Positions 1 through 45,933 of a stretch of DNA of 64,000 nucleotides are shown here, in pieces. The notes below the pieces were generated by a model. It ran no database searches and was not told the origin of the DNA. It worked only from the letters and a program-made list of their open reading frames with translations. Both the position numbers and the translations under genes were made by a program. Numbering within the stretch: position 1 is the stretch's first letter; each line of letters starts with the position of its first letter. This stretch comes from Alphaproteobacteria bacterium (GTDB lineage: Bacteria; Pseudomonadota; Alphaproteobacteria; UBA828), in the NCBI GenBank assembly GCA_963422645.2, contig CAXXVO010000007.1, positions 32,001 through 96,000 on the forward strand, read 5' to 3'.

Positions 1-442
1 CATCCCCCGGCCCGAGCGCCGGCGGCTCATTGACGACGCGCTGGAGCGCACCGGGCTCGGCGCCTTCGCGCGCATTCCGGCGCGCGTGCTCTCCTTCGGC
101 GAGCAGCAGCGGCTGGCGCTCGCGCGCTCCTGGGCGCTGCACCCGCAGGTGCTCTTCCTCGACGAGCCGACCGCCAATCTCGACCCGGCGGCGACCCACG
201 TGATAGAGGGCGCGATCGAGGCGATGGCCCGGGAGGGCACCAAGATCATCATGACCACCCACGATCTCGGCCAGGCGCGGCGGCTCGCCGACGAGGTGAT
301 GTTCCTGCACCGCGGCCGCGTGCTGGAGCACGCAGTAGCCGAGACCTTCTTTGCGGGGCCTGAGAACGAGCTCGCCAGCGCCTTCCTACGCGGGGAGCTC
401 TTGTGGTGGGAGCGCCGCGAGCTCACCCCGCCCGGGGCCTGA
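1..442 (+). CDS. tupC: ABC transporter ATP-binding protein, probably tungstate transporter TupC (5' partial)
   Basis: LSFGEQQRLALARS signature, LFLDEPT Walker B and H-loop; frame is open from the window start; lies directly upstream of tupA. Confidence 0.75.
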   Translation, partial: IPRPERRRLIDDALERTGLGAFARIPARVLSFGEQQRLALARSWALHPQVLFLDEPTANLDPAATHVIEGAIEAMAREGTKIIMTTHDLGQARRLADEVMFLHRGRVLEHAVAETFFAGPENELASAFLRGELLWWERRELTPPGA

Positions 443-459
443 AGCAGAGACCGCTGCCC

Positions 460-1299
460 ATGCGACTCTACGGCCGCTCCCGAGGCCGCGTCCTCCGCCT
501 CTTCGCGGCGTTGGCCCTCGCGCTCCTGCTGGCAGCGCCGGGCGCGCGGGCCGGGGACTTCATCACCGTCGCCTCGACCACGTCGACCCAGAACGCCGGG
601 CTCTTCGATCATCTGCTGCCGCTCTTCGAGGCCGAGACCGGGATCGAGGTGCGCGTCGTCGCGGTCGGCACCGGCCAAGCGCTGCGGCTCGCGCGGAACG
701 GCGATGCGGACTTGCTGCTGGTGCACGACAAGCCGTCCGAGAAAGCGTTCGTTGCCGAAGGCTACGGCAGCGCGCGCTTCGACCTGATGTACAACGACTT
801 CGTGGTGGTCGGGCCGGCGAGCGATCCGGCTGGAATCGCCGGCACGGACGACGCAGCCGCGGCGCTTGCCAGCATCGCGGCGGCGAAAGCGCCCTTCGTC
901 AGCCGAGGCGACGACAGCGGCACCCACCGGCGCGAGCAGGCACTCTGGGCGGCTGCTGGGGTGGACCCCACCGGTGCGTCCGGCACCTGGTACCGCGAAG
1001 CAGGCCAAGGCATGGGGGCGACGCTCAACACCGCGACGATGATGGAGGCTTACACGCTCGCCGACCGCGGCACGTGGCTCGCCATGCGGGGCAGGCTCGA
1101 CCTCCGGGTCGTGGTGGAGGGCGATGCGCGGCTCCGCAACCAGTACGGCATCACCCTGGTAAGCCCGGAGCGGCACCCGCACGTCAAGGCGGCGCTTGCC
1201 CGGCGCTTCGCCGATTGGCTGCTCTCGCCCGCGGGCCAGGCGGCGATCGACGGCTTCGCCATCGACGGCGAGCGCCTCTTCATCCCCAACGCGCGCTAA
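460..1299 (+). CDS. tupA: Tungstate ABC transporter substrate-binding protein
   Basis: Signal peptide; ASTTSTQNAGL, VGTGQAL and SRGDDSGTH motifs typical of TupA. Confidence 0.85.
   Translation: MRLYGRSRGRVLRLFAALALALLLAAPGARAGDFITVASTTSTQNAGLFDHLLPLFEAETGIEVRVVAVGTGQALRLARNGDADLLLVHDKPSEKAFVAEGYGSARFDLMYNDFVVVGPASDPAGIAGTDDAAAALASIAAAKAPFVSRGDDSGTHRREQALWAAAGVDPTGASGTWYREAGQGMGATLNTATMMEAYTLADRGTWLAMRGRLDLRVVVEGDARLRNQYGITLVSPERHPHVKAALARRFADWLLSPAGQAAIDGFAIDGERLFIPNAR
1200..1292 (+). repeat. 93-bp direct repeat, copy 1 (3' end of tupA)
   Basis: Matches 3797..3889 with 4 mismatches. Confidence 0.9.
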
Positions 1300-1415
1300 C
1301 CCGTATTTCTGTCGGGATCACGGCTTGCGTCGGGCGGGACGCGGGCGACGACGCCCCTCGCCCTAGACACGCATCAAGATATTGTGGATTGCGGGGAAAG
1401 CCATACAGAATCTGG

Positions 1416-1445
1416 TTGACAGCACCGGCCGAATTCTCCAGAACT
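1416..1445 (+). promoter_or_regulatory. Putative sigma70 promoter of the atypical tRNA
   Basis: TTGACA at 1416-1421 with a weak -10-like CAGAAC 17 bp downstream, about 20 bp before the tRNA. Confidence 0.5.
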
Positions 1446-1465
1446 CGACCAGTGCTGCACATTGC

Positions 1466-1551
1466 GGGCGCGTGGCGGAATTGGTAGACGCAGCGGTCTA
1501 GAAAACCGTGGCCTGAGGAGCATGTGGGTTCGAGTCCCACCGCGCCCACCA
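1466..1551 (+). tRNA. Atypical class II tRNA: anticodon AGA (Ser) on a Leu-type body
   Basis: Acceptor GGGCGCG/CGCGCCC + A + CCA; D arm GCG-GAATTGGTAGA-CGC; anticodon arm GCGGT-CTAGAAA-ACCGT; 14-nt variable region; T arm GTGGG-TTCGAGT-CCCAC. Confidence 0.9.
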
Positions 1552-1583
1552 GGGGCGGCCCAGTAGGGTCGCCCCTTTCCTTT
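1552..1583 (+). terminator. Intrinsic terminator after the tRNA
   Basis: GGGGCGGCCC-AGTA-GGGTCGCCCC hairpin followed by TTTCCTTT. Confidence 0.75.
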
Positions 1584-1632
1584 CCACCCGCATCTTGAGC
1601 CGAGAGGATCACCGGGTCAAGAAGAAATTGGC

Positions 1633-3520
1633 GTAACTGCCCAGGTTCTTGCTGTGAAAATTCTCTGGGATTCGGCACAACGCTACCCACGCGACGCCCG
1701 TGTGCTCCTCTGGGGTCGCCGGGTTTCACAGCTCACGATGCCCCTCTTGCGGACTGCGACCGGTAAGCTACCCCGATGTGGCCCGAAGTCCGCCCGCGCG
1801 ACGGGCACCGATTTTCATTCTATGGGGTGGTCCAGCACGGCGTCGACCATGATCGTTTATGAGAATGGCTCCGCTGTTGGAGAACCCGTGCCAGGTGAGC
1901 TTACGCGCACTTGACGGTGGCGATGAGCCGATCCGATGGGCTGGTCAGGGCTTCGATGATATTCCAGCCCTGCTTTCTGGCGGTGGTGATGACGCTGCGC
2001 AGGATGGCGAAGTTCTCGGCCCCCTGCGCGGACCGGAAGCCCCCGGAGATCTTCTGGCGCAGCTTCATCATCCGAAGGTCGCGCTCGGCCTCGTTGTTCG
2101 TGAACCCGACCTCGAGGTCGATCAGGAACCGGAGCACCGCGCATTTGTGGTCGCGCAGCCTCAAGGCCAGATTGTGACCGATCCTTCGCTTCCGGCGCTT
2201 CTTCCTCTTGCCAGGCGAGAACGGTGGTTGGCTCTCGTGAAAGGCCAGCGCATCGGCGATGATCTCGTCGTATCGGCGCTCGATCAGCGCCACAAGCCTC
2301 GCCGGAACGGCGATATCCTTGTCCAGCGCGATGCGGGCGGCGCGATTGGCTCGGCGCAGGAGCTGCTGCATCCGCCGGGCCCAAGCCTCCCCTTCGATGT
2401 CCACCAGCGCCTGCAACTCCCGCAGGTGATGGGCGTTGCACAGGCCGTGCTCCACCCCTTCCATCGCGAAGTACGGCTTCCAGTGATCGTGCACGACGAT
2501 GCCGGAGACACCCGAGAGCAGGGCGCCGCGCTTGCCGCTGACCCGGTACGCCGCCAGCAGCGGCGTGCAGATCACATGAAGCCACTGCGTCTGACCGCCG
2601 ATCCGCAAGCCGGTCTCGTCCATGTGTTTCACCCGCGCCGTGCCCGCCGCCAGGTCCTGTATGTGCAAGGCCGCGTCCCGCAGCCGCTCGGCCGCCCTCT
2701 CGCTCATCGTCGCCAACGTCGCAGCCGTCACCGGCGCGCCGAAGAGCTCGGCCATCACCTGCGACAGCCGATCCTCCGGCAGGAAGTGAGCGTGCTGAAG
2801 GTAGACCGCCACCCCGGCAATGCGCGGGCCGTACTGCACCGGCGCCGACACCCCGTCGGGGAACGCCGCCCGGGTCACCGTCCCGCAATGCCCGCAGCAC
2901 TTGGCATGCGCCCGGTGCTCGGTCACCTCCAGGGGGCTCGGCTCGGGCAGATCGAACACCTGGCGGGCGACGGGCGTTCCCGCCCTGGCCGCGTCCGAAA
3001 GCGGCGAACCGCATCCCTTGCAGGAAGCCGGGACGTGATCCTTCACCCGATCCGGGTGATCGGCGCGGCGCAGCGTCTTGCCCTTGTGGCCGGGCTGGCC
3101 ACCGGGCTTGCGGCCCGATTTGCCGCGCAGGCTTCGGGTTCGCCGCTTCGAATTCGGCTTCCTCAGCCCATCGCTCGAAGGCGGCTTGACGCTGTTGCCG
3201 CTGTTGAGGCCGAGACGGCGCTCCAACTCCTCGATGCGCTCGACGAGACGCGCGACTTGCTCTTCCAGCCGCGCGTTCTGCTGCCGAAGCCAGGCATTTT
3301 CCTCCCGAAGCCGGGCGTTCTCCTCCTCCAGGCGGGCGATCTTCTGCGCGGGCGTTTCGGGCGCTGCTCCCGTCGAAGGGCCGCGCGGCGACTCGGGATT
3401 GCTCATGTCGTTGTTGAGTCATTTCCCGAAATTCCCGTCAAGCCCTTTCCACCAACTCCGAACGAGAAACGCCTCAATCCACTGGCCCAAAATGACAAAT
3501 CAGACGACCTGGGCAGTTAC
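1633..3520 (-). mobile_element. IS66-family element A, copy 1 (single ORF, ISBst12-like), 1888 bp
   Basis: Terminal IRs GTAACTGCCCAGGT; 8-bp target duplication AAATTGGC at 1625-1632 and 3521-3528. Confidence 0.95.
1901..3406 (-). CDS. IS66 transposase (TnpC-like)
   Basis: Coiled coil, KPPSSDG, GGQPGHKG, CxxC zinc motifs, MDETG, CNAHHLREL, TNNEAERDLR. Confidence 0.95.
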   Translation of the reverse strand: MSNPESPRGPSTGAAPETPAQKIARLEEENARLREENAWLRQQNARLEEQVARLVERIEELERRLGLNSGNSVKPPSSDGLRKPNSKRRTRSLRGKSGRKPGGQPGHKGKTLRRADHPDRVKDHVPASCKGCGSPLSDAARAGTPVARQVFDLPEPSPLEVTEHRAHAKCCGHCGTVTRAAFPDGVSAPVQYGPRIAGVAVYLQHAHFLPEDRLSQVMAELFGAPVTAATLATMSERAAERLRDAALHIQDLAAGTARVKHMDETGLRIGGQTQWLHVICTPLLAAYRVSGKRGALLSGVSGIVVHDHWKPYFAMEGVEHGLCNAHHLRELQALVDIEGEAWARRMQQLLRRANRAARIALDKDIAVPARLVALIERRYDEIIADALAFHESQPPFSPGKRKKRRKRRIGHNLALRLRDHKCAVLRFLIDLEVGFTNNEAERDLRMMKLRQKISGGFRSAQGAENFAILRSVITTARKQGWNIIEALTSPSDRLIATVKCA

Positions 3521-3524
3521 AAAT

Positions 3525-3566
3525 TGGCTCTCAATTGGATTCCAAATGGATTCCAATTGAGAGCCA
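3525..3566. promoter_or_regulatory. 42-bp near-perfect palindrome upstream of the RHH gene (candidate operator or hairpin)
   Basis: TGGCTCTCAATTGGA ... TCCAATTGAGAGCCA, perfect 15-bp arms plus inner TCCA/TGGA. Confidence 0.6.
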
Positions 3567-3590
3567 CGTGCTGTACCGTGCATCTCTGCC

Positions 3591-3779
3591 ATGGCCGAAA
3601 ACAAGCCGATCCATGTCCGAATTTCGCAGATCATGCATGAGTACCTGCAGGACTTGACTGATACTGGGGCTTACGGAGCTAACCCCACGGACGTAGCTCG
3701 GACACTGATCGAAGAAGGAGTGAGAAGGGCTCTGGCGGAGAAGATTATCGAAGTTCGGCGCGGCACCAAGTCGGGTTAG
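3591..3779 (+). CDS. Small ribbon-helix-helix (CopG/MetJ-like) DNA-binding protein
   Basis: 62 aa; beta-strand IHVRIS, helix, G-x-Y-G turn, helix PTDVARTLIEEGV; lower GC than the flanks. Confidence 0.6.
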   Translation: MAENKPIHVRISQIMHEYLQDLTDTGAYGANPTDVARTLIEEGVRRALAEKIIEVRRGTKSG

Positions 3780-3796
3780 CACACCAGCGCAAGCGT

Positions 3797-3889
3797 CCGG
3801 CGCTTCGCCGAATGGCTGCTCTCGCCCGCAGGCCAGGCGGCGATCGACGGCTTCACCATCGATGGCGAGCGCCTCTTCATCCCCAACGC
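3797..3889 (+). repeat. 93-bp direct repeat, copy 2 (orphan tupA 3' fragment)
   Basis: Encodes RRFAEWLLSPAGQAAIDGFTIDGERLFIPNA; 89/93 identical to 1200..1292. Confidence 0.9.
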
Positions 3890-7240: not shown

Positions 7241-7797
7241 GGAGCGTTATCCATGACTGACGCCGCAGTATCCAGCGGACCGGATCTTCTCGAGCGGCTG
7301 GCGGCAGGGCCTGTCATCTGCGCCGAGGGCTATCTGTTCGAGATCGAGCGCCGCGGCTATCTCTCCGCAGGCGCCTACGTGCCGGAGGCGGTTCTCGACC
7401 ACCCGGAGGTCGTGGCCCAATTGCACCGCGATTTTCTGCACGCGGGCTCCGACGTCATGCTGGCCTTCACCTACTACGCCCATCGCGAGAAGCTGCGGGT
7501 GATCGGCAGGGAGGACACGCTCGAGGAGATGAACCGCACGGCGCTCCGCCTGGCGCGGGAGGCGGCGCAGGGGAGCGACGCGCTGGTCGCCGGCAATGTG
7601 TCCAACTCCAGCATTTACGTAACTGCCCAGGTCGTCTGATTTGTCGTAACTACCCAGGTACCCCGCCGCCAGTTCTGAGTGCGTGCTGATGTTGCTTGCC
7701 GTCGGTGCCGTTTCGCCGTCGGCGCGTCGTTGATCCCCGCTTGACTGTATAGGTTCTCTCGCCTATGGGTTGCACTCTCGCATGAGAGGAGCAGCCG

Positions 7798-8466
7798 GTG
7801 GGGTATTTCGGGTCGAAGGCGACGACCGGTCTGAGCCAGGCGCTGATTGCGCTGATGCCGCCGCACTCTGTCTATATCGAGAGCCATCTTGGGGGCGGGG
7901 CGCTGATGAAGCGCAAGCCTGCGGCCATGCGCTCGATCGGGATCGACCGCGACGAGCGGGCGCTTGAGGCCTTTGGCTGCGACTACCCGGTGGAGTTGGT
8001 GCCCGGCTGCGCCCATTCCTTCCTGGCCTCGTTCCCGTTTCTGGGCCCGGAGCTGGTCTACAGCGATCCGCCCTATCTGCACGCGACCCGGCGTTCGTCG
8101 CAGCGCTACCGCTTCGAGTACGAGGAGGCCGACCACGTCGCGCTCCTCGAACTGCTCAAGGGTCTGCCCTGCCAGGTGATGGTCTCGGGCCACCCGTCTG
8201 CGCTCTATGACGAGCTGCTGGCGGGCTGGCGCCGGCTGGCGCTGCAGGTGACGACCCAGGCCCAGGTGCGGACCGAGGTCGTGTGGTTCAACTTCGCGCC
8301 TGACCGGGTGCACTGGGCGAGCTTCGCCGGCCGGAACTTCACCGAGCGCCAGTGCATCAAGCGCAAGGCGGCCAACTGGGGCCGGCGCTACGAGGCCATG
8401 CCGGCGGGCGAACGCCTGGCGGTGCTGGCCGCGATCATGGCCGTCGAGGCCGACGAGGGTTCGTGA
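7798..8466 (+). CDS. Compact N6-adenine DNA methyltransferase (Dam/D12-like, alpha motif order)
   Basis: GYFGSK, YIESHLGGGA (motif I), IGID, LVYSDPPY (motif IV), SGH/Y-x-S-x-LY; 222 aa. Confidence 0.9.
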   Translation: MGYFGSKATTGLSQALIALMPPHSVYIESHLGGGALMKRKPAAMRSIGIDRDERALEAFGCDYPVELVPGCAHSFLASFPFLGPELVYSDPPYLHATRRSSQRYRFEYEEADHVALLELLKGLPCQVMVSGHPSALYDELLAGWRRLALQVTTQAQVRTEVVWFNFAPDRVHWASFAGRNFTERQCIKRKAANWGRRYEAMPAGERLAVLAAIMAVEADEGS

Positions 8467-10004
8467 CAGTGTCGCGCTGGCACGAGGACCTCGCTGCCCA
8501 CGACGAGGCCTTCGCGTGCCTGCAGGACCTTTTCACCCCACAATCCTTCGCAATGACCGCCGTCAAAGCCATTCGGGAATGGGGCCAGAGGTTGCTGCGC
8601 CTGAGCGCGGCCCTGGTCAAGGAGAACGACGCGCTGGAGCGGGAGAACGCCCGCTTGCGCGAGCGGATCGCCGAACTCGAGCGCAGCGCCGCGCTCGACA
8701 GCACCACCAGCTCCAAGCCGCCGGCCAGCGACGGTCTGAAGAAGAAGAGCGGTGACCGGGAGAAGCGCACCCGGAGCCAGCGCGGCAAGTCCGACAGGCC
8801 CAGTGGCGGCCAGCCGGGCCACAAGGGAACTACCCTGGAGCGGACCGCGACGCCCGACCATGTCGTCGATCATGATCCGTCCGCCTGTGAGGGCTGCGGC
8901 GCGCCGCTGTCGGACGCTGACCGTCACGGAGCCCCCGTCTGCCGGCAGGTCTTCGATGTGCCCGAGCCGCAGCCCCTCGAGGTCACCGAACATCGCGGCC
9001 ATCGTTGCCTCTGCGCTGCCTGCGGCACCGTGACGACAGCCGTCTTCCCGAACGGCGTGAGCGCACCGGTCCAATACGGGCCGCGCATCACCGCGTGGGT
9101 GACCTACCTGCTGCACGCTCAGTTCATTCCCGAGAAGCGGGTCGCCGAGGTCATGAGCGACCTCTTCGCGGTCAAGCTCTCAACAGCCACCATCGTCGCC
9201 ATGGGAAGGCGCACCGCCCGGCGCTTCGAGGGCTTCCTCGATCGCCTCGCGGAGATCATCCGCACCGCAGCCCCAGTCAAACACCTCGACGAGACCGGCA
9301 TCCGCATCGCCGCCCGGACCCATTGGCTCCATGTGCTGTGCACCCCGTTGCTCACCATCCTGCGCGTCGCCACCGGGCGCAGCCACATCGACGAGAAGCT
9401 CAACGGCATCGTCATCCATGACGACTACGCCACCTACTTCGCTCTCGAGGGCGTGCGCCACGGGGCCTGCAACGCCCATCACCTGCGCGAGCTCCAAGCC
9501 CTCATCGAGATCGAGAAGGAAGACTGGGCAACGAGCACGCACCGGCTCCTCATCCGTGCCAACAGAGCCGCCCGCTTCGCCCACAAGAACGACCGCGACG
9601 TGCCCGCCTCACTGGTGGCCCGCATCTCGCGAGCCTGGGACCGCATCCTCGAACGTGCCATCGCCTCTCACGAAGAAATGCCACCGCTCCAGACCGGAAA
9701 GCGCGGACGACAAAAGCGCCGCATCGGTCACAACCTCGCCCTCCGACTCCAGAAGTACAAGGAGGGGTGCCTGCGCTTCCTCACCGATCCGCGAACCCCC
9801 TTCTCCAACAACGAGGCCGAGCGCGACCTCCGAATGGGCAAGCTGCGCCAGAAAATCTCAGGCGGCTTCCGCTCGATACAAGGCGCCCGCGACTTCGCAA
9901 ACCTGCGATCCGTCATCGCCACCGCTCGAAAACAGCGCTGGAATGTCCTCGAAACCCTGGCGCACCCCGATCCAATCCAGCTGATCCCCGTATTGCGCTT
10001 CTGA
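8463..10004 (+). CDS. IS66 transposase of element B
   Basis: SSKPPASDG, GGQPGHKG, LDETG, CNAHHLREL, SNNEAERDLR; GTG start overlaps the MTase stop (GTGA). Confidence 0.92.
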   Translation: MTVSRWHEDLAAHDEAFACLQDLFTPQSFAMTAVKAIREWGQRLLRLSAALVKENDALERENARLRERIAELERSAALDSTTSSKPPASDGLKKKSGDREKRTRSQRGKSDRPSGGQPGHKGTTLERTATPDHVVDHDPSACEGCGAPLSDADRHGAPVCRQVFDVPEPQPLEVTEHRGHRCLCAACGTVTTAVFPNGVSAPVQYGPRITAWVTYLLHAQFIPEKRVAEVMSDLFAVKLSTATIVAMGRRTARRFEGFLDRLAEIIRTAAPVKHLDETGIRIAARTHWLHVLCTPLLTILRVATGRSHIDEKLNGIVIHDDYATYFALEGVRHGACNAHHLRELQALIEIEKEDWATSTHRLLIRANRAARFAHKNDRDVPASLVARISRAWDRILERAIASHEEMPPLQTGKRGRQKRRIGHNLALRLQKYKEGCLRFLTDPRTPFSNNEAERDLRMGKLRQKISGGFRSIQGARDFANLRSVIATARKQRWNVLETLAHPDPIQLIPVLRF

Positions 10005-10201
10005 AATCCTGCGCTGCTCCGGGAAAGCGCCGCCTGACCCCTGGCTGGTCAGAACCATCAATCCATCACGTCCGAGTGCTCGGCAGAATCAGACCTGGGC
10101 AGTTACGATTTGTCATTTTGGGCCAGTGGATTGAGGCGTTTCTCGTTCGGAGTTGGTGGAAAGGGCTTGACGGGAATTTCGGGAAATGACTCAACAACGA
10201 C

Positions 10202-11707
10202 ATGAGCAATCCCGAGTCGCCGCGCGGCCCTTCGACGGGAGCAGCGCCCGAAACGCCCGCGCAGAAGATCGCCCGCCTGGAGGAGGAGAACGCCCGGCTT
10301 CGGGAGGAAAATGCCTGGCTTCGGCAGCAGAACGCGCGGCTGGAAGAGCAAGTCGCGCGTCTCGTCGAGCGCATCGAGGAGTTGGAGCGCCGTCTCGGCC
10401 TCAACAGCGGCAACAGCGGCAAGCCGCCTTCGAGCGATGGGCTGAGGAAGCCGAATTCGAAGCGGCGAACCCGAAGCCTGCGCGGCAAATCGGGCCGCAA
10501 GCCCGGTGGCCAGCCCGGCCACAAGGGCAAGACGCTGCGCCGCGCCGATCACCCGGATCGGGTGAAGGATCACGTCCCGGCTTCCTGCAAGGGATGCGGT
10601 TCGCCGCTTTCGGACGCGGCCAGGGCGGGAACGCCCGTCGCCCGCCAGGTGTTCGATCTGCCCGAGCCGAGCCCCCTGGAGGTGACCGAGCACCGGGCGC
10701 ATGCCAAGTGCTGCGGGCATTGCGGGACGGTGACCCGGGCGGCGTTCCCCGACGGGGTGTCGGCGCCGGTGCAGTACGGCCCGCGCATTGCCGGGGTGGC
10801 GGTCTACCTTCAGCACGCTCACTTCCTGCCGGAGGATCGGCTGTCGCAGGTGATGGCCGAGCTCTTCGGCGCGCCGGTGACGGCTGCGACGTTGGCGACG
10901 ATGAGCGAGAGGGCGGCCGAGCGGCTGCGGGACGCGGCCTTGCACATACAGGACCTGGCGGCGGGCACGGCGCGGGTGAAACACATGGACGAGACCGGCT
11001 TGCGGATCGGCGGTCAGACGCAGTGGCTTCATGTGATCTGCACGCCGCTGCTGGCGGCGTACCGGGTCAGCGGCAAGCGCGGCGCCCTGCTCTCGGGTGT
11101 CTCCGGCATCGTCGTGCACGATCACTGGAAGCCGTACTTCGCGATGGAAGGGGTGGAGCACGGCCTGTGCAACGCCCATCACCTGCGGGAGTTGCAGGCG
11201 CTGGTGGACATCGAAGGGGAGGCTTGGGCCCGGCGGATGCAGCAGCTCCTGCGCCGAGCCAATCGCGCCGCCCGCATCGCGCTGGACAAGGATATCGCCG
11301 TTCCGGCGAGGCTTGTGGCGCTGATCGAGCGCCGATACGACGAGATCATCGCCGATGCGCTGGCCTTTCACGAGAGCCAACCACCGTTCTCGCCTGGCAA
11401 GAGGAAGAAGCGCCGGAAGCGAAGGATCGGTCACAATCTGGCCTTGAGGCTGCGCGACCACAAATGCGCGGTGCTCCGGTTCCTGATCGACCTCGAGGTC
11501 GGGTTCACGAACAACGAGGCCGAGCGCGACCTTCGGATGATGAAGCTGCGCCAGAAGATCTCCGGGGGCTTCCGGTCCGCGCAGGGGGCCGAGAACTTCG
11601 CCATCCTGCGCAGCGTCATCACCACCGCCAGAAAGCAGGGCTGGAATATCATCGAAGCCCTGACCAGCCCATCGGATCGGCTCATCGCCACCGTCAAGTG
11701 CGCGTAA
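10202..11707 (+). CDS. IS66 transposase (element A copy 2)
   Basis: Identical to the other copies except NSGKPP instead of NSVKPP. Confidence 0.95.
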   Translation: MSNPESPRGPSTGAAPETPAQKIARLEEENARLREENAWLRQQNARLEEQVARLVERIEELERRLGLNSGNSGKPPSSDGLRKPNSKRRTRSLRGKSGRKPGGQPGHKGKTLRRADHPDRVKDHVPASCKGCGSPLSDAARAGTPVARQVFDLPEPSPLEVTEHRAHAKCCGHCGTVTRAAFPDGVSAPVQYGPRIAGVAVYLQHAHFLPEDRLSQVMAELFGAPVTAATLATMSERAAERLRDAALHIQDLAAGTARVKHMDETGLRIGGQTQWLHVICTPLLAAYRVSGKRGALLSGVSGIVVHDHWKPYFAMEGVEHGLCNAHHLRELQALVDIEGEAWARRMQQLLRRANRAARIALDKDIAVPARLVALIERRYDEIIADALAFHESQPPFSPGKRKKRRKRRIGHNLALRLRDHKCAVLRFLIDLEVGFTNNEAERDLRMMKLRQKISGGFRSAQGAENFAILRSVITTARKQGWNIIEALTSPSDRLIATVKCA

Positions 11708-12749
11708 GCTCACCTGGCACGGGTTCTCCAACAGCGGAGCCATTCTCATAAACGATCATGGTCGACGCCGTGCTGGACCACCCCATAGAATGAAAATCGG
11801 TGCCCGTCGCGCGGGCGGACTTCGGGCCACATCGGGGTAGCTTACCGGTCGCAGTCCGCAAGAGGGGCATCGTGAGCTGTGAAACCCGGCGACCACAGAG
11901 GAGCACACGGGCGTCGCGTGGGTAGCGTTGTGCCGAATCCCAGAGAATTTTCACAGCAAGAACCTGGGCAGTTACACATTTACGTGGACGGCGACGCCGA
12001 GTCCGCCCGCGAGGTGCGCACGATGTTCGACGAGCAGGTGGCCTGGGCCGTCGACGAGGGCGTGGATTACATCGTCGCCGAGACCATCTCCTTCGTCGGC
12101 GAGGCCCTGCTCGCGCTTGAAGCGATCAAGGCGGCCGGCCAGACGGCAGTGATCAACCTCGCCGTCCACCGCGACCCGACCACGCGGGACGGATTGAGCC
12201 TGGCCGAGGCAGCCAAGCGCCTGGAAGACGCGGGCGCCGACGTGGTCGGGCTCAACTGCACGCGCGGCCCGGCCACCATGCTGCCGCTGCTCGGCCCCAT
12301 TCGCGAGGCGGTGAGCTGCCACGTCGCGGCGCTGCCGGTGGCCTACCGCACCACCGCCGAGCAACCCAGCTTCCAGGCCCTGGAGGATCCCGGCTGCGCC
12401 TGTCTGCCGCGGGAGCGGCCCTTCCCCACCGCGCTCGACCCCTTCACCGTCAATCGTTACGAGATCGAGAAATTCACCAGGGACGCGCAGGCGCTCGGCG
12501 TCAACTATCTCGGCGTCTGCTGCGGCGCGTCCCCCCACCACATCCGCAGCATGGCGGAGGCCCTCGGCCGGCACCCGCCGGGGAGCAGGTACTCGCCCGA
12601 CATGTCCACACACGCCTTCTACGGCACCTCGGACAAGGTCCCGTCCGAATACAAGGACTTCGCGAAGCACCTTTAGGAGGGGTCGGGCACCAGGGCTGCG
12701 GGAGACGCCGCACGCCCGCGTAACCATCGTGAACTGGGAGAACATGTCC

Positions 12750-13803
12750 ATGACTGACGCCGAAGCGTCTGGCGTATCGAGTCCTGACTTCGACGGTTGG
12801 GCCGGTCCTCTGCGCAGAGGGCTATCTGTTCGAGCTCGAGCGCAGCGGCTATGTCGCCGCCGGCCCCTATGTGCCCGAGGCAGTGCTGGAACACCCCGAT
12901 GCGGTGATCCGGCTGCACCGTGATTTCCTGCGCGCGGGCTCCGACGTGATGCTCGCTTTCACTTACTACGCACACCGGGAAAAGCTCAGGCTGATCGGCA
13001 AAGAGGGCGCACTGGAAGAGATCAACCGCACCGCGATCCGTCTTGCGCGGGAGGCGGCGCGGGAGGGCGACGCTCTGGTCGCCGGCAACGTCTGCAACTC
13101 CAACATCTACGTGGACGGCGAGACCGAGTCCGCGCGGCGGGTGCGTGCCATGTTCGACGAGCAAGTGGGCTGGGCCGTGGACGAGGGTGTGGACTTCATC
13201 GTTGCCGAAACGATCTCTTACGTCAGCGAGGCGCTGTTGGCGCTGGAGGCGATCAAGGAGGCAGGCCTGCCGGCGGTGATCAACCTCGCCATCTTCCGTG
13301 ACCCGCTGACGCGCGAAGGACTGACCCCGGCCGAGGCCTGCAAGCGCCTGGAGGATGCTGGCGCCGACGTTGTGGGACTCAACTGCGCGCGCGGCCCGGC
13401 CACCATGCTGCCCTTGCTCGGGGAAATCCGCGAAACGGTGAGCTGCCACGTCGCGGCGCTCCCGGTGGCCTACCGCACCACCGAGGACGAGCCGACCTTC
13501 CTGTCGCTCAGCGATTCCGAGTGCGTTTGCATACCGGAAGAACGCCCCTTCCCCACGGCGCTCGACCCCTTCACCTGCAACCGCTATGAGATTGCGGAAT
13601 TCACCAGAGACGCGCGGGCACTCGGCGTCAACTATCTTGGCGTCTGTTGCGGCGCGGCACCCCACCATATCCGCAGCATGGCGGAGGCGCTCGGCCGCCA
13701 GCCGCCGGCGAGCAAGTACTCGCCCGACATGACTCGGCACGCCTACTTGGGGACCGTCGACGAAATCCCGGCTGCGAACAGGTCGTTCGCCAGGTACTTG
13801 TAG
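12750..13803 (+). pseudogene. Homocysteine S-methyltransferase (BHMT-like), paralog 2, with a 5' frameshift
   Basis: ATG 12750 (MTDA..., as in paralog 1) is out of frame with VLCAEGYLFELERSGY...GLNC...GVCCG; the shift lies between 12750 and about 12805. Confidence 0.75.
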
Positions 13804-18421: not shown

Positions 18422-19472
18422 ACCGCTTATGCACATGGCTCCGGTCGCGAGAGTTTGCCACCAGATGTTGAGGTTGAGGTTAGGGCGGGAGAACGGGTAG
18501 AATGTTGCCTATACGTTCCTGCCGACGGAGCCACCACATGAAACAGGTCGCCGACAGCCTCCTCGCCTTCCAGCACATGTTCCCGGACGATGACGCCTGC
18601 GCCGCCTGGCTGATCGAAATGCGCTGGCCGGACGGCTTCGTCTGTCCCGCGTGCGGCCATGAAAAGGGATGGGCGCTGCGCAGAAAAGCACACACCTTCG
18701 AGTGCGCCGGCTGCCGCCGGCAGACCTCGGTGACGGCCGGGACGATCCTGCACGCCAGCAAGCTGCCGCTCACCGTCTGGTTCTGGGCCGCCTACCTGAT
18801 GGCGACCCACTCCAACGGCATCTCTGCCCTGCAGCTCCAGAAACAGCTCGGTATCGGCTCTTACCGCAGCGCTTGGCTGCTCGCCCACAAGCTGCGCGCC
18901 AGCATGGTCGACCCCGAGCGCAACCCGTTGTCGGGCCTGGTGGAAATCGACGAGGCCAGCCTTCCATTCCGGACCAAAGACGATCCTCCCACCGGAGGGC
19001 AAGGACGCAGCCACGACGGCAAGATGCTCATCGTCGGCGCCATCGAACTGGGGGATGGAACCATCCCGGGCCGCCTGCGGCTGGCCGAAATCTCCTCCTA
19101 CGGCGCCGCCGACCTCGGACACTTCGTCGAAACCGCCGCCGATCCCGACGCCATCGCGAAAACCGACGGCTGGTCCGGCTACGCTGCGGTCCCCGCCGAT
19201 CGCCACAATGTCCATGTCGTCGGGAAGACCGCCGCTCACCTCGTCCTGCCGTGGATCCACCAAGTCTTCTCCAACCTCAAAGGATGGGCGCGAGGCGTCT
19301 ACCACGGGCTGCGCCGCAAGCATCTGCAGGCCTATCTCGATGAGTTCGCCTTTCGCTTCAACCGCCGCAAAACCCGCCACGCTGCTTTCCGCTCGCTCTT
19401 CCGCATCGCCACCAATGCAAAACCCCTTACCTACAGCATGTTGATCGAACCGGAGCCATGTGCATAAGCGGT
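18422..19472 (+). mobile_element. IS1595-family element, 1051 bp
   Basis: Perfect 24-bp IR ACCGCTTATGCACATGGCTCCGGT; 8-bp target duplication ATCTAGGA. Confidence 0.95.
18502..19467 (+). CDS. IS1595 transposase (start may be ATG 18538)
   Basis: RWPDGFVCPACG zinc ribbon, VEIDE, KTDGW, YLDEFAFRFNRR. Confidence 0.92.
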   Translation: MLPIRSCRRSHHMKQVADSLLAFQHMFPDDDACAAWLIEMRWPDGFVCPACGHEKGWALRRKAHTFECAGCRRQTSVTAGTILHASKLPLTVWFWAAYLMATHSNGISALQLQKQLGIGSYRSAWLLAHKLRASMVDPERNPLSGLVEIDEASLPFRTKDDPPTGGQGRSHDGKMLIVGAIELGDGTIPGRLRLAEISSYGAADLGHFVETAADPDAIAKTDGWSGYAAVPADRHNVHVVGKTAAHLVLPWIHQVFSNLKGWARGVYHGLRRKHLQAYLDEFAFRFNRRKTRHAAFRSLFRIATNAKPLTYSMLIEPEPCA

Positions 19473-45840: not shown

Positions 45841-45933
45841 GGAGGGATGGCCGAGTGGTCGAAGGCGGCGGTTTGCTAAACCGTTGTACGGTGACAAGCC
45901 GTACCGTGGGTTCGAATCCCACTCCCTCCGCCA
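45841..45933 (+). tRNA. tRNA-Ser(GCT)
   Basis: Acceptor GGAGGGA/TCCCTCC + G + CCA; anticodon arm GCGGT-TTGCTAA-ACCGT; long variable arm; TTGACA upstream at 45782. Confidence 0.97.

Follow-up and report, generated by a model that had tools for sequence, protein, structure and literature searches.

A leucine-type tRNA with a serine anticodon on a strain-specific insert of an alphaproteobacterium, and its mobile relatives

The window analysed here is a 64,000-nucleotide (nt) stretch of the genome of an Alphaproteobacteria bacterium (contig CAXXVO010000007.1), and the gene in question is a transfer RNA (tRNA) gene at positions 1466-1551 of its plus strand. A preliminary description, made from the letters alone, had proposed that this gene joins leucine (Leu) identity elements to the serine (Ser) anticodon AGA and may insert leucine at UCU codons. 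We are highly confident that the gene is real, intact and acquired, that it is Leu-like with a Ser anticodon, and that it is a member of a recurrent family. The fuller reading, in which a functional-looking, horizontally acquired tRNA with a leucine chassis and a serine anticodon, one of a mobile family of mismatched tRNAs, would also place leucine at UCU, is the one towards which we lean.

Anatomy and identity of the tRNA

ARAGORN called two tRNAs in the window and labelled the one at 1466-1551 (plus strand) as Ser with anticodon aga; the same gene scores 57.4 bits against Rfam RF00005 (gathering score 29). The tRNA unit consists of the following features.

1416-1444, plus strand: possible promoter, with a −35 element TTGACA at 1416-1421, a 17-nt spacer and a weak −10-like CAGAAC at 1439-1444 (read by eye).
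1466-1551, plus strand: tRNA with a Leu-type body, anticodon AGA at 1500-1502, A15 at 1480, A73 and an encoded CCA (ARAGORN, Rfam, identity table, profiles).
1551-1586, plus strand: intrinsic-terminator-like hairpin at 1551-1576 (terminator scan: 11 pairs, 9 of them G-C, loop of 4), then a T-rich tail, TTCCTTTCCA.

In the ARAGORN drawing, the acceptor stem (GGGCGCG/CGCGCCC) forms 7/7 pairs and the T stem 5/5 pairs around the T loop TTCGAGT. The anticodon stem GCGGT/ACCGT forms 5/5 pairs, one of them G-T, and is the same as in tRNA-Ser(GCT) at 45841, as had been claimed. The anticodon loop runs C1498 T1499 A1500 G1501 A1502 A1503 A1504 (CT-AGA-AA), CCA is encoded at 1549-1551, the D arm is TGGCGGAATTGGTAGACGC, and the variable region is GGCCTGAGGAGCAT, 14 nt long with two unpaired 3' bases (AT) leading to U48. 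The intact stems, the encoded CCA, the CT-AGA-AA loop and the Leu-like rest of the body, as listed in the preliminary description, are thus each borne out in the sequence. The flanking signals that it named, TTGACA upstream and a terminator downstream, are likewise in the sequence; a full promoter was left uncalled by the consensus scan.

Part of the stretch is present in 20 listed sequencing runs, of which four were compared, all as contig sets that carry neither transcript ends nor levels; the uncovered parts of RNA-labelled runs count as no evidence. Contigs of four other runs span the anticodon and show no difference there. Run X8, under another organism label, covers 1213-1363 and 1378-1528 with identical sequence, taking in both the insert junction and the anticodon, and run X5, with the same organism label but from another study, covers 1315-1640 with one difference in 326 bases, an A to G change at 1480. 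Positions 1498-1504, where a misread anticodon had been a concern, are therefore free of differences in independent runs, which rules out a sequencing or assembly error; the anticodon is real and stable across strains. Run X7 (RNA only by a guess) covers 1411-1585, and run X10, an RNA-Seq library, contains a 151-nt record that covers 1428-1558 and then passes into Illumina adapter. These two RNA-labelled runs cover the tRNA unit without the upstream gene, whereas the DNA runs cover both; this coverage hints, weakly at best, at a transcript of its own.

The host genome (5.9 Mb, 67.2% G+C) encodes leucine tRNAs with the anticodons taa, caa, tag, cag and gag and serine tRNAs with gct, cga, tga and gga; since both sets are complete, the AGA tRNA is an extra gene. 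One leucyl-tRNA synthetase (LeuRS; a strong match on contig C9) and one seryl-tRNA synthetase (SerRS; contig C14) were found in the host, neither of them near the tRNA nor on the insert that carries it. We then compared the window tRNA with the host sets. Its discriminator base is A73, as in 5/5 host leucine tRNAs, and the intact host serine tRNAs have G73 (4/4). The D arm is the same as in host Leu(tag) and Leu(cag) and differs from that of host serine tRNAs; the variable region (14 nt) compares with 13-15 nt in host leucine and 16-21 nt in host serine tRNAs; and identity outside the anticodon arm is 76-80% to host leucine tRNAs but 66-70% to host serine tRNAs. The Leu-type core features A14, A15-U48, G18G19 and A20a are also present. 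Three marks of a serine tRNA, namely a long variable arm, G73 and a Ser-type D arm, are missing, and of the marks of a leucine tRNA the anticodon (NAG or YAA) is missing, AGA standing in its place.

Profile scores agree with this comparison. Home-built nhmmer profiles with the anticodon masked, made from 13 unique canonical leucine and 14 unique serine tRNAs of the host and its relatives, gave the window tRNA 53.2 bits for Leu versus 22.8 bits for Ser. With the host tRNAs held out, the scores were 56.3 and 25.3 bits, and the controls (5 Leu, 4 intact Ser) were assigned correctly in 9/9 cases with wide margins. A Leu score above the Ser score, which the preliminary description had named as support for its reading, was thus obtained with these profiles (53-56 versus 23-25 bits).

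Two parts of the molecule are Ser-like. The 17-nt anticodon arm matches that of host Ser(CGA) at 16/17 positions and those of host leucine tRNAs at 3-12/17, and pair 2-71, overlooked earlier, is G2-C71 as in host serine tRNAs, in place of the C2-G71 found in 5/5 host leucine tRNAs; the acceptor strand GGGCGCG thereby provides G1-C72 and G2-C71 as in bacterial tRNASer. The window tRNA is thus a leucine body in which the anticodon arm and the second base pair are Ser-flavoured, and the hybrid anatomy first proposed, a Leu body with a Ser anticodon, is upheld. In E. coli, Leu identity resides in A73, A15-U48, G18G19 and A20a, with the anticodon and variable arm unread; G73 blocks LeuRS, C2-G71 of tRNALeu blocks SerRS, and the variable arm is the main SerRS determinant (PMC9976931, in the part of the text at hand). 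By these E. coli rules, leucylation of the window tRNA by LeuRS is expected.

Two observations concern the host tRNA set. A second tRNA-Ser(cga) gene lies outside the window, at C8:555005-555092 of the host, with a damaged T arm and 3' end and no G73, and is probably a pseudogene. Four long host 'tRNAs', called as Ala ggc (93 nt), ??? gg (91 nt), Gln (85 nt) and Met (81 nt), were considered as family members and rejected as ARAGORN false positives in GC-rich coding DNA.

The insert and the wider tRNA family

The tRNA lies on an insert between a solute-binding-protein gene and a DAO oxidoreductase gene. The features of this region are listed below.

403-1299, plus strand: solute-binding-protein gene (PBP_like_2; Pfam PF12849, E 1.5e-43), whose last codons and stop (from 1293) come from the insert; relatives align only to 1292-1298.
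1200-1292, plus strand: copy 1 of a 93-base-pair (bp) imperfect direct repeat, the left border of the insert (96% identity to 3797-3889).
1293-3796: strain-specific insert of 2504 bp, made up of a core of ~608 bp and a later IS66-family insertion with an 8-bp duplication; absent in congeneric loci L172-L178 (7/7).
1625-1632: left 8-bp target-site duplication AAATTGGC of the IS66-family element (same 8 bp at 3521-3528).
1633-3520, minus strand: IS66-family insertion sequence with its transposase at 1901-3406 (Pfam DDE_Tnp_IS66, E 3.5e-39, and zf-IS66) and ends GTAACTGCCCAGG.
3521-3528: right 8-bp target-site duplication AAATTGGC (from the sequence).
3529-3562: palindrome TCTCAATTGG-N14-CCAATTGAGA upstream of the small open reading frame (ORF), read by eye; a possible operator.
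3591-3779, plus strand: ORF of 62 amino acids (P0002) in the insert core (from the translation).
3797-3889, plus strand: copy 2 of this repeat, where the solute-binding-protein gene ended ancestrally; as in relatives, it is continuous with the DAO gene (repeat search, relatives).

In 7/7 loci of the same genus, the solute-binding-protein gene runs straight into the DAO oxidoreductase gene with a single copy of the 93-bp repeat; this empty site identifies 1293-3796 as an insertion. The nearest relative, L172, continues beyond the repeat exactly like copy 2. Within the insert, the IS66-family element begins 82 bp downstream of the tRNA, and 1633-3501 is a 100% identical inverted copy of 10107-11975; the element landed after the arrival of the tRNA-bearing segment. 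The core of ~608 bp contains only the tRNA, its terminator, the palindrome and the 62-residue ORF. This ORF has 15 unannotated homologues (63-92% identity), matches no Pfam, PHROGs or PADLOC family, and had no counterpart in 400 further genomes from the class or in viral contigs. No recombinase was found on the insert by Pfam, and no mechanism was found for a 93-bp target duplication; the two copies of the repeat have four differences between them and are about equally distant from the relatives' sequence.

The sources of the tRNA itself point away from the host. None of 40 relatives (20 of the same genus) carries a close copy, the best 19 loci being canonical leucine tRNAs (14 caa, 2 taa, 3 tag) with at most 79% identity, and a search of plasmids returned three weak tRNA-only matches for the tRNA flank and none for the region of the 62-residue ORF. 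The nearest tRNA (L030, 85% identity) comes from another family-level taxon, and the host's own leucine tRNAs reach at most 79%. A one-off mutation of a host leucine tRNA is ruled out by this low identity, the location on the insert and the presence of relatives elsewhere. On these sequence comparisons, the tRNA is horizontally acquired and sits on a strain-specific insert of ~0.6 kb.

To find such relatives, one genome for each of 185,579 species was searched with a pattern combining the Leu-type D-arm hexamer, the loop YTAGAAA and the T loop. The pattern occurred in 11 places, 10 of which are ARAGORN tRNA(aga) genes with a Leu-type D arm. By record title, the sources are Alphaproteobacteria (Oceanicaulis, Beijerinckiaceae, Reyranella, Stellaceae), Gammaproteobacteria, Dehalococcoidia, Candidatus Palauibacter and Pyrinomonadaceae. 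Relatives that combine AGA with A73, which would speak for the proposed hybrid, therefore exist: A73 is clear in nine of these 10 (L022 has an imperfect acceptor stem), and more occur in metagenomes. The acceptor, T and variable stems vary among the 10, with pairing retained.

A scan with position 34 left open returned 11 viral-contig stretches and at least 120 metagenome-contig stretches. The ARAGORN-confirmed metagenome tRNAs, among the matches listed, are distributed over position 34 and the discriminator base as follows.

A34: A73 in 12 (11 aga and L140, called Leu(tag)); G73 in 3; other in 1.
T34: A73 in 25; G73 in 7; other in 0.
C34: A73 in 7; G73 in 18; other in 1.
G34: A73 in 9; G73 in 1; other in 1.

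The A73 sequences are Leu-type bodies, and the G73 sequences look like genuine serine tRNAs of the eukaryotic or giant-virus type. For example, a 504-kb viral contig (L043) carries at 958-1991 three tRNAs (AGA, CGA and UGA) with a Leu-like D-arm hexamer but with G73 and GAC... acceptor stems; these look like genuine serine tRNAs of that type, so the D-arm hexamer alone does not define a leucine body. The anticodon AGA is at least two substitutions away from any Leu anticodon, yet among the matches listed it reaches about half the frequency of UGA, an anticodon only one step away from UAA, and this argues against mutational or sequencing noise. Also among the matches listed, 53 of the 63 unique sequences of the family keep at least 16 of 17 stem pairs over three stems (a 1-nt offset in the ARAGORN start accounts for several of the lower values), and the Leu profile outscores the Ser profile for 69 of 70.

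The NGA sets above were picked by an anticodon pattern and are not an unbiased sample of anticodons. The unbiased search started from a small partner protein encoded beside many of these tRNAs, whose alignment (A1) was run on viral contigs. At 6/6 loci found in this way, the gene immediately upstream is a class II tRNA that has A73 and the D arm of a Leu tRNA; the anticodons are UCC (2), UGG (1) and UUA (3), with no Leu anticodon and no NGA among them. A viral scan in which the anticodon-arm backbone of the window tRNA was fixed and the anticodon left open gave 12 loci, three of them on contigs already in the partner-first set, with UUA in seven, CUA in one (uncalled by ARAGORN) and a Leu anticodon in four. 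The partner adjoins 5/7 of these UUA tRNAs versus 0/4 of the Leu-anticodon tRNAs, which indicates that it goes specifically with mismatched tRNAs. At least seven non-Leu anticodons thus occur on the leucine chassis, in several phyla. The same chassis carries UGA, CGA, GGA, UCC, UGG and UUA as well, so AGA and UCU hold no special place. Judged by these matches, the family is a widespread one of mobile leucine-chassis tRNAs with varied non-Leu anticodons, and the AGA tRNA of the window is a member.

We next examined the surroundings of the family by clustering the ORFs within 4 kb of A73 tRNAs at 53 metagenome and viral loci, 10 genome loci and the window. The partner family lies directly downstream on the same strand in at least 12 loci (~10 distinct, two pairs being near-identical), namely beside AGA in L021, L023, L030 and L148, beside UGA in L063, L077, L087, L100, L144 and L152, and beside GGA in L129 and L158. 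Its start codon falls 25-35 nt past the tRNA, the protein has 134-145 amino acids, and its homologues, at least 82, are all hypothetical or unnamed. No Pfam, PHROGs or PADLOC family matched it, and the Atlas returned only hypothetical-protein clusters and a sub-threshold AbiEi_4 lead. In the AlphaFold model (predicted local distance difference test, pLDDT, 79.4), an N-terminal helix of 47 residues leads into a domain of three helices and a short hairpin. Foldseek found no match in the PDB at E ≤0.001, the best being winged-helix regulators (Fur, PadR, LmrR, MarR) at E 0.03-0.07. On this model, the partner is probably a coiled-coil, winged-helix-like protein that regulates the operon. Upstream of most partner-linked tRNAs there is a −35 of the TTGACA type, with a −10 whose end is 7-9 nt away from the tRNA, and palindromes such as TTGATA..TATCAA often overlap these elements (read by eye). 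A tRNA with a promoter of its own and the partner behind it is the layout in most of the well-resolved relatives, and its simplest reading would be an autoregulated tRNA-regulator operon.

A transposase of the IS1595 family (PF12762 and PF12760) adjoins the tRNA in at least 10 loci. In a Pfam scan of 150 neighbour ORFs, out of 169 chosen from 62 unique loci, it was the only recurring family (8 members), and no synthetase recurred. No inverted repeats were found around transposase, tRNA and partner in the four loci examined. The window copy is solitary: it has neither the partner nor an adjoining IS1595-family gene, what follows it downstream is the terminator, the IS66-family element and the unrelated 62-residue ORF, and its flanking DNA shows no relation to that around other members. 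No IS1595-family gene lies on the insert, and the nearest in the genome is at window ~18925-19362.

Several further observations were made at family loci and in the host. A third small protein family (~150-165 amino acids) is encoded in at least six module loci (L023:4012-4503, plus strand; L158:3381-3884, minus strand; L084:230-721, minus strand; L100; L129; L152), and one member has a match, sub-threshold only, to HARE-HTH. Just downstream of the partner gene, at L021:3215-3291 (minus strand) and L182:2732-2806 (plus strand), there is a class I tRNA with anticodon GCU (Ser AGY), an Arg-type D arm (GTAGCTCA..GGATAGAGC), G73, and C35 and U36 kept as in Arg UCU/CCU tRNAs. These tRNAs might be charged with arginine and read AGC/AGU, a second kind of mismatch in the same cassettes. 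On the Candidatus Palauibacter chromosome, a 77-nt tRNA called Gly(acc) begins 43 nt after the AGA tRNA (L028:4600-4676); with its Arg-like body and GCACCAA (C33) as the loop, it is a further A34 tRNA in tandem. The 150 neighbour ORFs include two with TROVE and Ro60-vWA domains and one RtcB. Bacterial Ro60/RtcB operons encode Y RNAs with tRNA-like modules, and a few of the pattern hits might be Y RNA mimics and not tRNAs. The host genome is very rich in insertion sequences and has 34 IS1595-family matches, 18 of them with identical scores.

Decoding and rival explanations

If the E. coli identity rules hold in this host, its single LeuRS would charge the AGA tRNA with leucine through A73, A15-U48 and G18G19. 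With U33 and A36-A37-A38 forming a normal decoding loop, the charged tRNA would read UCU and place Leu instead of Ser; more of the UCN box could possibly be read if A34 is modified or wobbles. UCU had been expected to be rare in this high-GC host, and it is: TCT accounts for 1.59 per 1000 codons and is the eighth rarest of 61 sense codons. With UCU so infrequent (1.6 per 1000 codons) and the host's own tRNA-Ser(GGA) in competition for this codon, such a tRNA would be tolerated. Judged by the identity rules of model organisms, leucylation and Leu insertion at UCU are the most likely activity here. According to the available part of a recent preprint (10.64898/2026.05.15.725136), E. coli tolerates serX when its anticodon is AGA, tRNAs with A34 are active in translation, and after filtering only 132 of ~240,000 bacterial tRNAs are non-ACG A34 tRNAs, mostly Thr-AGU and Leu-AAG.

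The element genes give no sign of relying on such decoding. A private code, in which these genes would need the tRNA, was not supported, as strictly cognate Ser codons stand in Leu-rich columns in 0/19 cases for the IS1595-family transposase and 0/9 for the partner. Recoding of TAA near the ochre-type members was not supported either: none of the five longest read-through candidates has a Pfam domain across the in-frame TAA. The ochre-type loci carry phage or satellite genes (large terminase, D5_N primase). Since the element genes show no dependence on recoding, the tRNAs would act in trans on whatever is translated.

What such action would serve can be framed in several ways. Some family anticodons read codons that are rare in a GC-rich host (TCA is the ninth rarest in this host and CCA the 13th, and TAA is the rarest stop at 12.8%), but the trend is partial, as GGA is mid-ranked (only 23rd) and U34 anticodons may also read common codons that end in G, such as CCG. 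Where it holds, the rare-codon pattern equally fits tolerance of low-cost mis-decoders and harm to AT-richer invaders. Candidate purposes of mis-decoding are regulated proteome corruption, conflict between mobile elements, and none beyond that of a tolerated passenger; the window copy may be either active without regulation or a leftover that the host tolerates. A more far-reaching proposal, which we regard as rather doubtful, is that the family makes up codon-corrupting mobile cassettes: leucine-chassis (and some arginine-chassis) tRNAs with Ser, Gly, Pro or stop anticodons, held by a winged-helix repressor and switched on by transposons or prophage-like elements to poison or rewire translation, for instance in abortive infection or as an inter-element weapon, the window tRNA being a stray member. 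The targets of such cassettes would tend, in part, to be codons rare in GC-rich hosts. Defence against AT-rich invaders, as raised in the preliminary description, is speculation, and nothing in the window links the tRNA to defence. At one locus (L026:2048-6310, a Reyranella metagenome-assembled genome), an AGA tRNA lies inside a CRISPR-Cas locus with Cas_GSU0053 upstream; downstream, a 589-residue Cas4/Cas1-like ORF, a 97-residue Cas2-like ORF and a HigA/HigB-like pair were recognised by eye, which as regards defence is anecdotal. One Cas1 Pfam match occurs among the 150 neighbour ORFs.

A number of observations weigh against the reading of the window tRNA as an active Leu inserter, and most of them bear on one rival or another; the choice of the NGA sets by anticodon pattern, noted above, is a further such point. 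The tRNA could be a silent or decaying relic, that is, a stranded fragment of a module with little or no transcription, no effect on translation and a neutral fate. No partner homologue exists anywhere in the host genome (best E 0.27 with a hidden Markov model), the flanks are unlike those of other members, the consensus promoter scan of 1000-2000 called no full plus-strand promoter, an IS66-family element sits 82 bp downstream, and the insert is without a recombinase. The variable stem is weak, with about two Watson-Crick pairs and a G.A mismatch in the ARAGORN drawing, and the strain variant in run X5 has G15 for A15 (position 1480), a base that forms the Levitt pair with U48 and belongs to the Leu identity set of E. 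coli. The RNA-library contigs, with 5' limits at 1411 and 1428, begin upstream of where transcription from the TTGACA would start; they may reflect DNA carry-over or read-through. On the other hand, the acceptor, anticodon and T stems keep 17/17 pairs, the gene encodes CCA and is followed by a terminator, X8 has the same sequence under another organism label and X5 has one difference in 326 bases, the family is structurally conserved, and the two RNA-labelled runs, weak as this evidence is, cover just the tRNA unit. We consider a relic rather unlikely.

Another set of observations concerns the amino acid. Were the tRNA charged wholly or partly with serine, it would be an ordinary decoder that adds UCU capacity with little or no mistranslation. 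G1-C72 and G2-C71 are those of bacterial tRNASer, and with G2-C71 the anti-SerRS element of E. coli tRNALeu, C2-G71, is absent, so some serylation is possible (PMC9976931, in the part of the text at hand). Together with the anticodon arm, 16/17 to host Ser(CGA), this makes partial, weak serylation possible. The Ser profile score of 23-25 bits is also about twice that of any true leucine tRNA (≤12.6 bits). The element genes themselves keep strictly cognate codons in Ser-rich columns, five in the transposase and one in the partner (6/28, against 0/28 in Leu-rich columns), including one at the invariant Ser of the partner LSRLK motif in L021; since these codons sit at conserved Ser positions, heavy Leu insertion would damage the element genes. 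Serine charging is nonetheless opposed by A73 in place of G73, by a D arm the same as in host leucine tRNAs, by Leu scores of 53-56 against Ser scores of 23-25 bits, and by a 14-nt variable region with a weak stem, compared with 16-21 nt in host serine tRNAs, the variable arm being the main SerRS determinant in the sections of PMC9976931 consulted. Moreover, the same chassis occurs with Gly, Pro and ochre anticodons, where serylation would give no ordinary decoder either. An ordinary serine decoder is, in our judgement, very unlikely.

The tRNA might instead serve the mobile element without decoding, as a ligand or decoy for a tRNA-targeting enzyme, as a regulatory RNA bound by the partner, or as a recombination or transposition landmark, with the anticodon used for recognition. 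Its tight coupling to a partner of nucleic-acid-binding type and to the IS1595-family transposase, the absence of any sign that the elements recode their own genes, and the very varied anticodons on one chassis are all in keeping with such a role, as is the occurrence of unusual tRNAs of other kinds close to genes of toxin-antitoxin systems and transposons (Mukai et al. 2017, PMC5389517, in the part at hand). However, Y32, U33, R37 and A38 are kept and CCA is encoded in many members, Leu anticodons stand beside the partner in 0/6 and 0/5 cases, which looks like selection on decoding and not drift, and no inverted repeats enclose the unit in four loci. A non-decoding role is therefore one we hold to be unlikely, and leucine insertion at UCU by a functional tRNA stays the reading that we favour.

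Known mismatched tRNAs and the surrounding DNA

To our knowledge, natural tRNAs whose body and anticodon disagree are very few, comprising tRNAProX, selenocysteine/cysteine hybrids, allo-tRNAs and yeast CUG tRNAs. In recoded E. coli, the engineered Leu-tRNA(YGA) firewalls of Nyerges et al. 2023 reportedly read UCR Ser codons as Leu and block viruses and gene transfer. Those firewalls are man-made and their host was first cleared of the target codons, whereas the tRNA here is natural and its host still uses UCU. The leucine chassis, the one used for synthetic Ser-to-Leu firewalls, is used in nature too for mismatched tRNAs.

One close natural likeness is to the tRNAProX tRNAs (tRNAProA, ProT, ProN) of Streptomyces and Kitasatospora, which are likewise bacterial tRNAs with a mismatch between body and anticodon and with A34; according to the part of PMC11415595 at hand, all of them have A34 and cause mistranslation when expressed in E. 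coli. They differ in several respects, again as far as that part of the source goes. Their chassis is that of proline and not leucine, and they have A33, A15-A48 and G21, as against U33, A15-U48 and a D arm of the normal Leu type in the window tRNA. They are accompanied by a co-encoded ProRSx and confined to actinomycetes; here a single LeuRS and a single SerRS lie elsewhere in the genome, the leucine-chassis family is found in several phyla, and other members carry U34, C34 or G34 besides A34. Unlike tRNA-ProA, which the preliminary description had cited as a precedent for deliberate mistranslation, the window tRNA is accompanied by no dedicated synthetase.

Like the family described here, allo-tRNAs (Mukai et al. 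2017, PMC5389517) are rare tRNAs of genomes and metagenomes, carry many mismatched anticodons on a chassis whose synthetase disregards the anticodon, and often lie near toxin-antitoxin or transposon-related genes. In the portion of that paper available to us, however, they have an 8/4 or 9/3 acceptor/T-stem and Ser or Ala identity, as against the canonical 7/5 geometry and Leu features of the leucine-chassis family, and the paper mentions neither tRNALeu nor LeuRS. The conserved, specific partner protein also sets the family apart from allo-tRNAs. The window tRNA is outside both the tRNAProX class, by its lack of a dedicated synthetase, and the allo-tRNA class, by its 7/5 geometry. The tRNASer(CAG) of CUG-clade yeasts is likewise a natural case of class II Ser/Leu ambiguity (PMC11415595, in the part at hand), but there a Ser chassis serves a Leu codon in a eukaryotic, vertically inherited and genome-wide reassignment, whereas here the gene is rare, mobile and present in 0/40 relatives. 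With canonical bacterial tRNALeu, finally, the window tRNA shares class II structure, A73, A15-U48, the G18G19 D loop and, for host Leu, 76-80% identity outside the anticodon arm; it differs in having AGA for NAG/YAA, G2-C71 for C2-G71 and a Ser-like anticodon arm.

Full-text searching returned no literature in which tRNAs of the Leu type bear Ser, Gly, Pro or ochre anticodons, and none about their partner or the link to IS1595, although the supplementary tRNA lists of Mukai 2017 and of the A34 preprint might hold such genes; the family of mobile leucine-chassis tRNAs is apparently undescribed. Its conserved partner and its association with a transposase offer an experimental handle on regulation and mobility. 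If the tRNAs are charged and decode, they would provide a natural system in which to study mistranslation under regulation, the suppression of stop codons and what it costs to acquire tRNAs horizontally, and would bear on the robustness of recoded biocontainment strains, since mobile tRNAs could alter codon reading. If they are not used in translation, they would point to a new tRNA-like function in mobile elements.

The DNA around the insert shows further insertion-sequence activity. Four copies of one IS66-family transposase ORF (~505 amino acids) lie within 26 kb around the tRNA (C8:17733-43707, equal to window −14267 to 11707). A homocysteine S-methyltransferase gene is split into an N-terminal part at 7253-7639 and a C-terminal part at 11876-12676, with two IS66-family elements (8304-10004 and 10107-11975) between the halves, and an intact homocysteine S-methyltransferase paralogue is located at 12754-13803.

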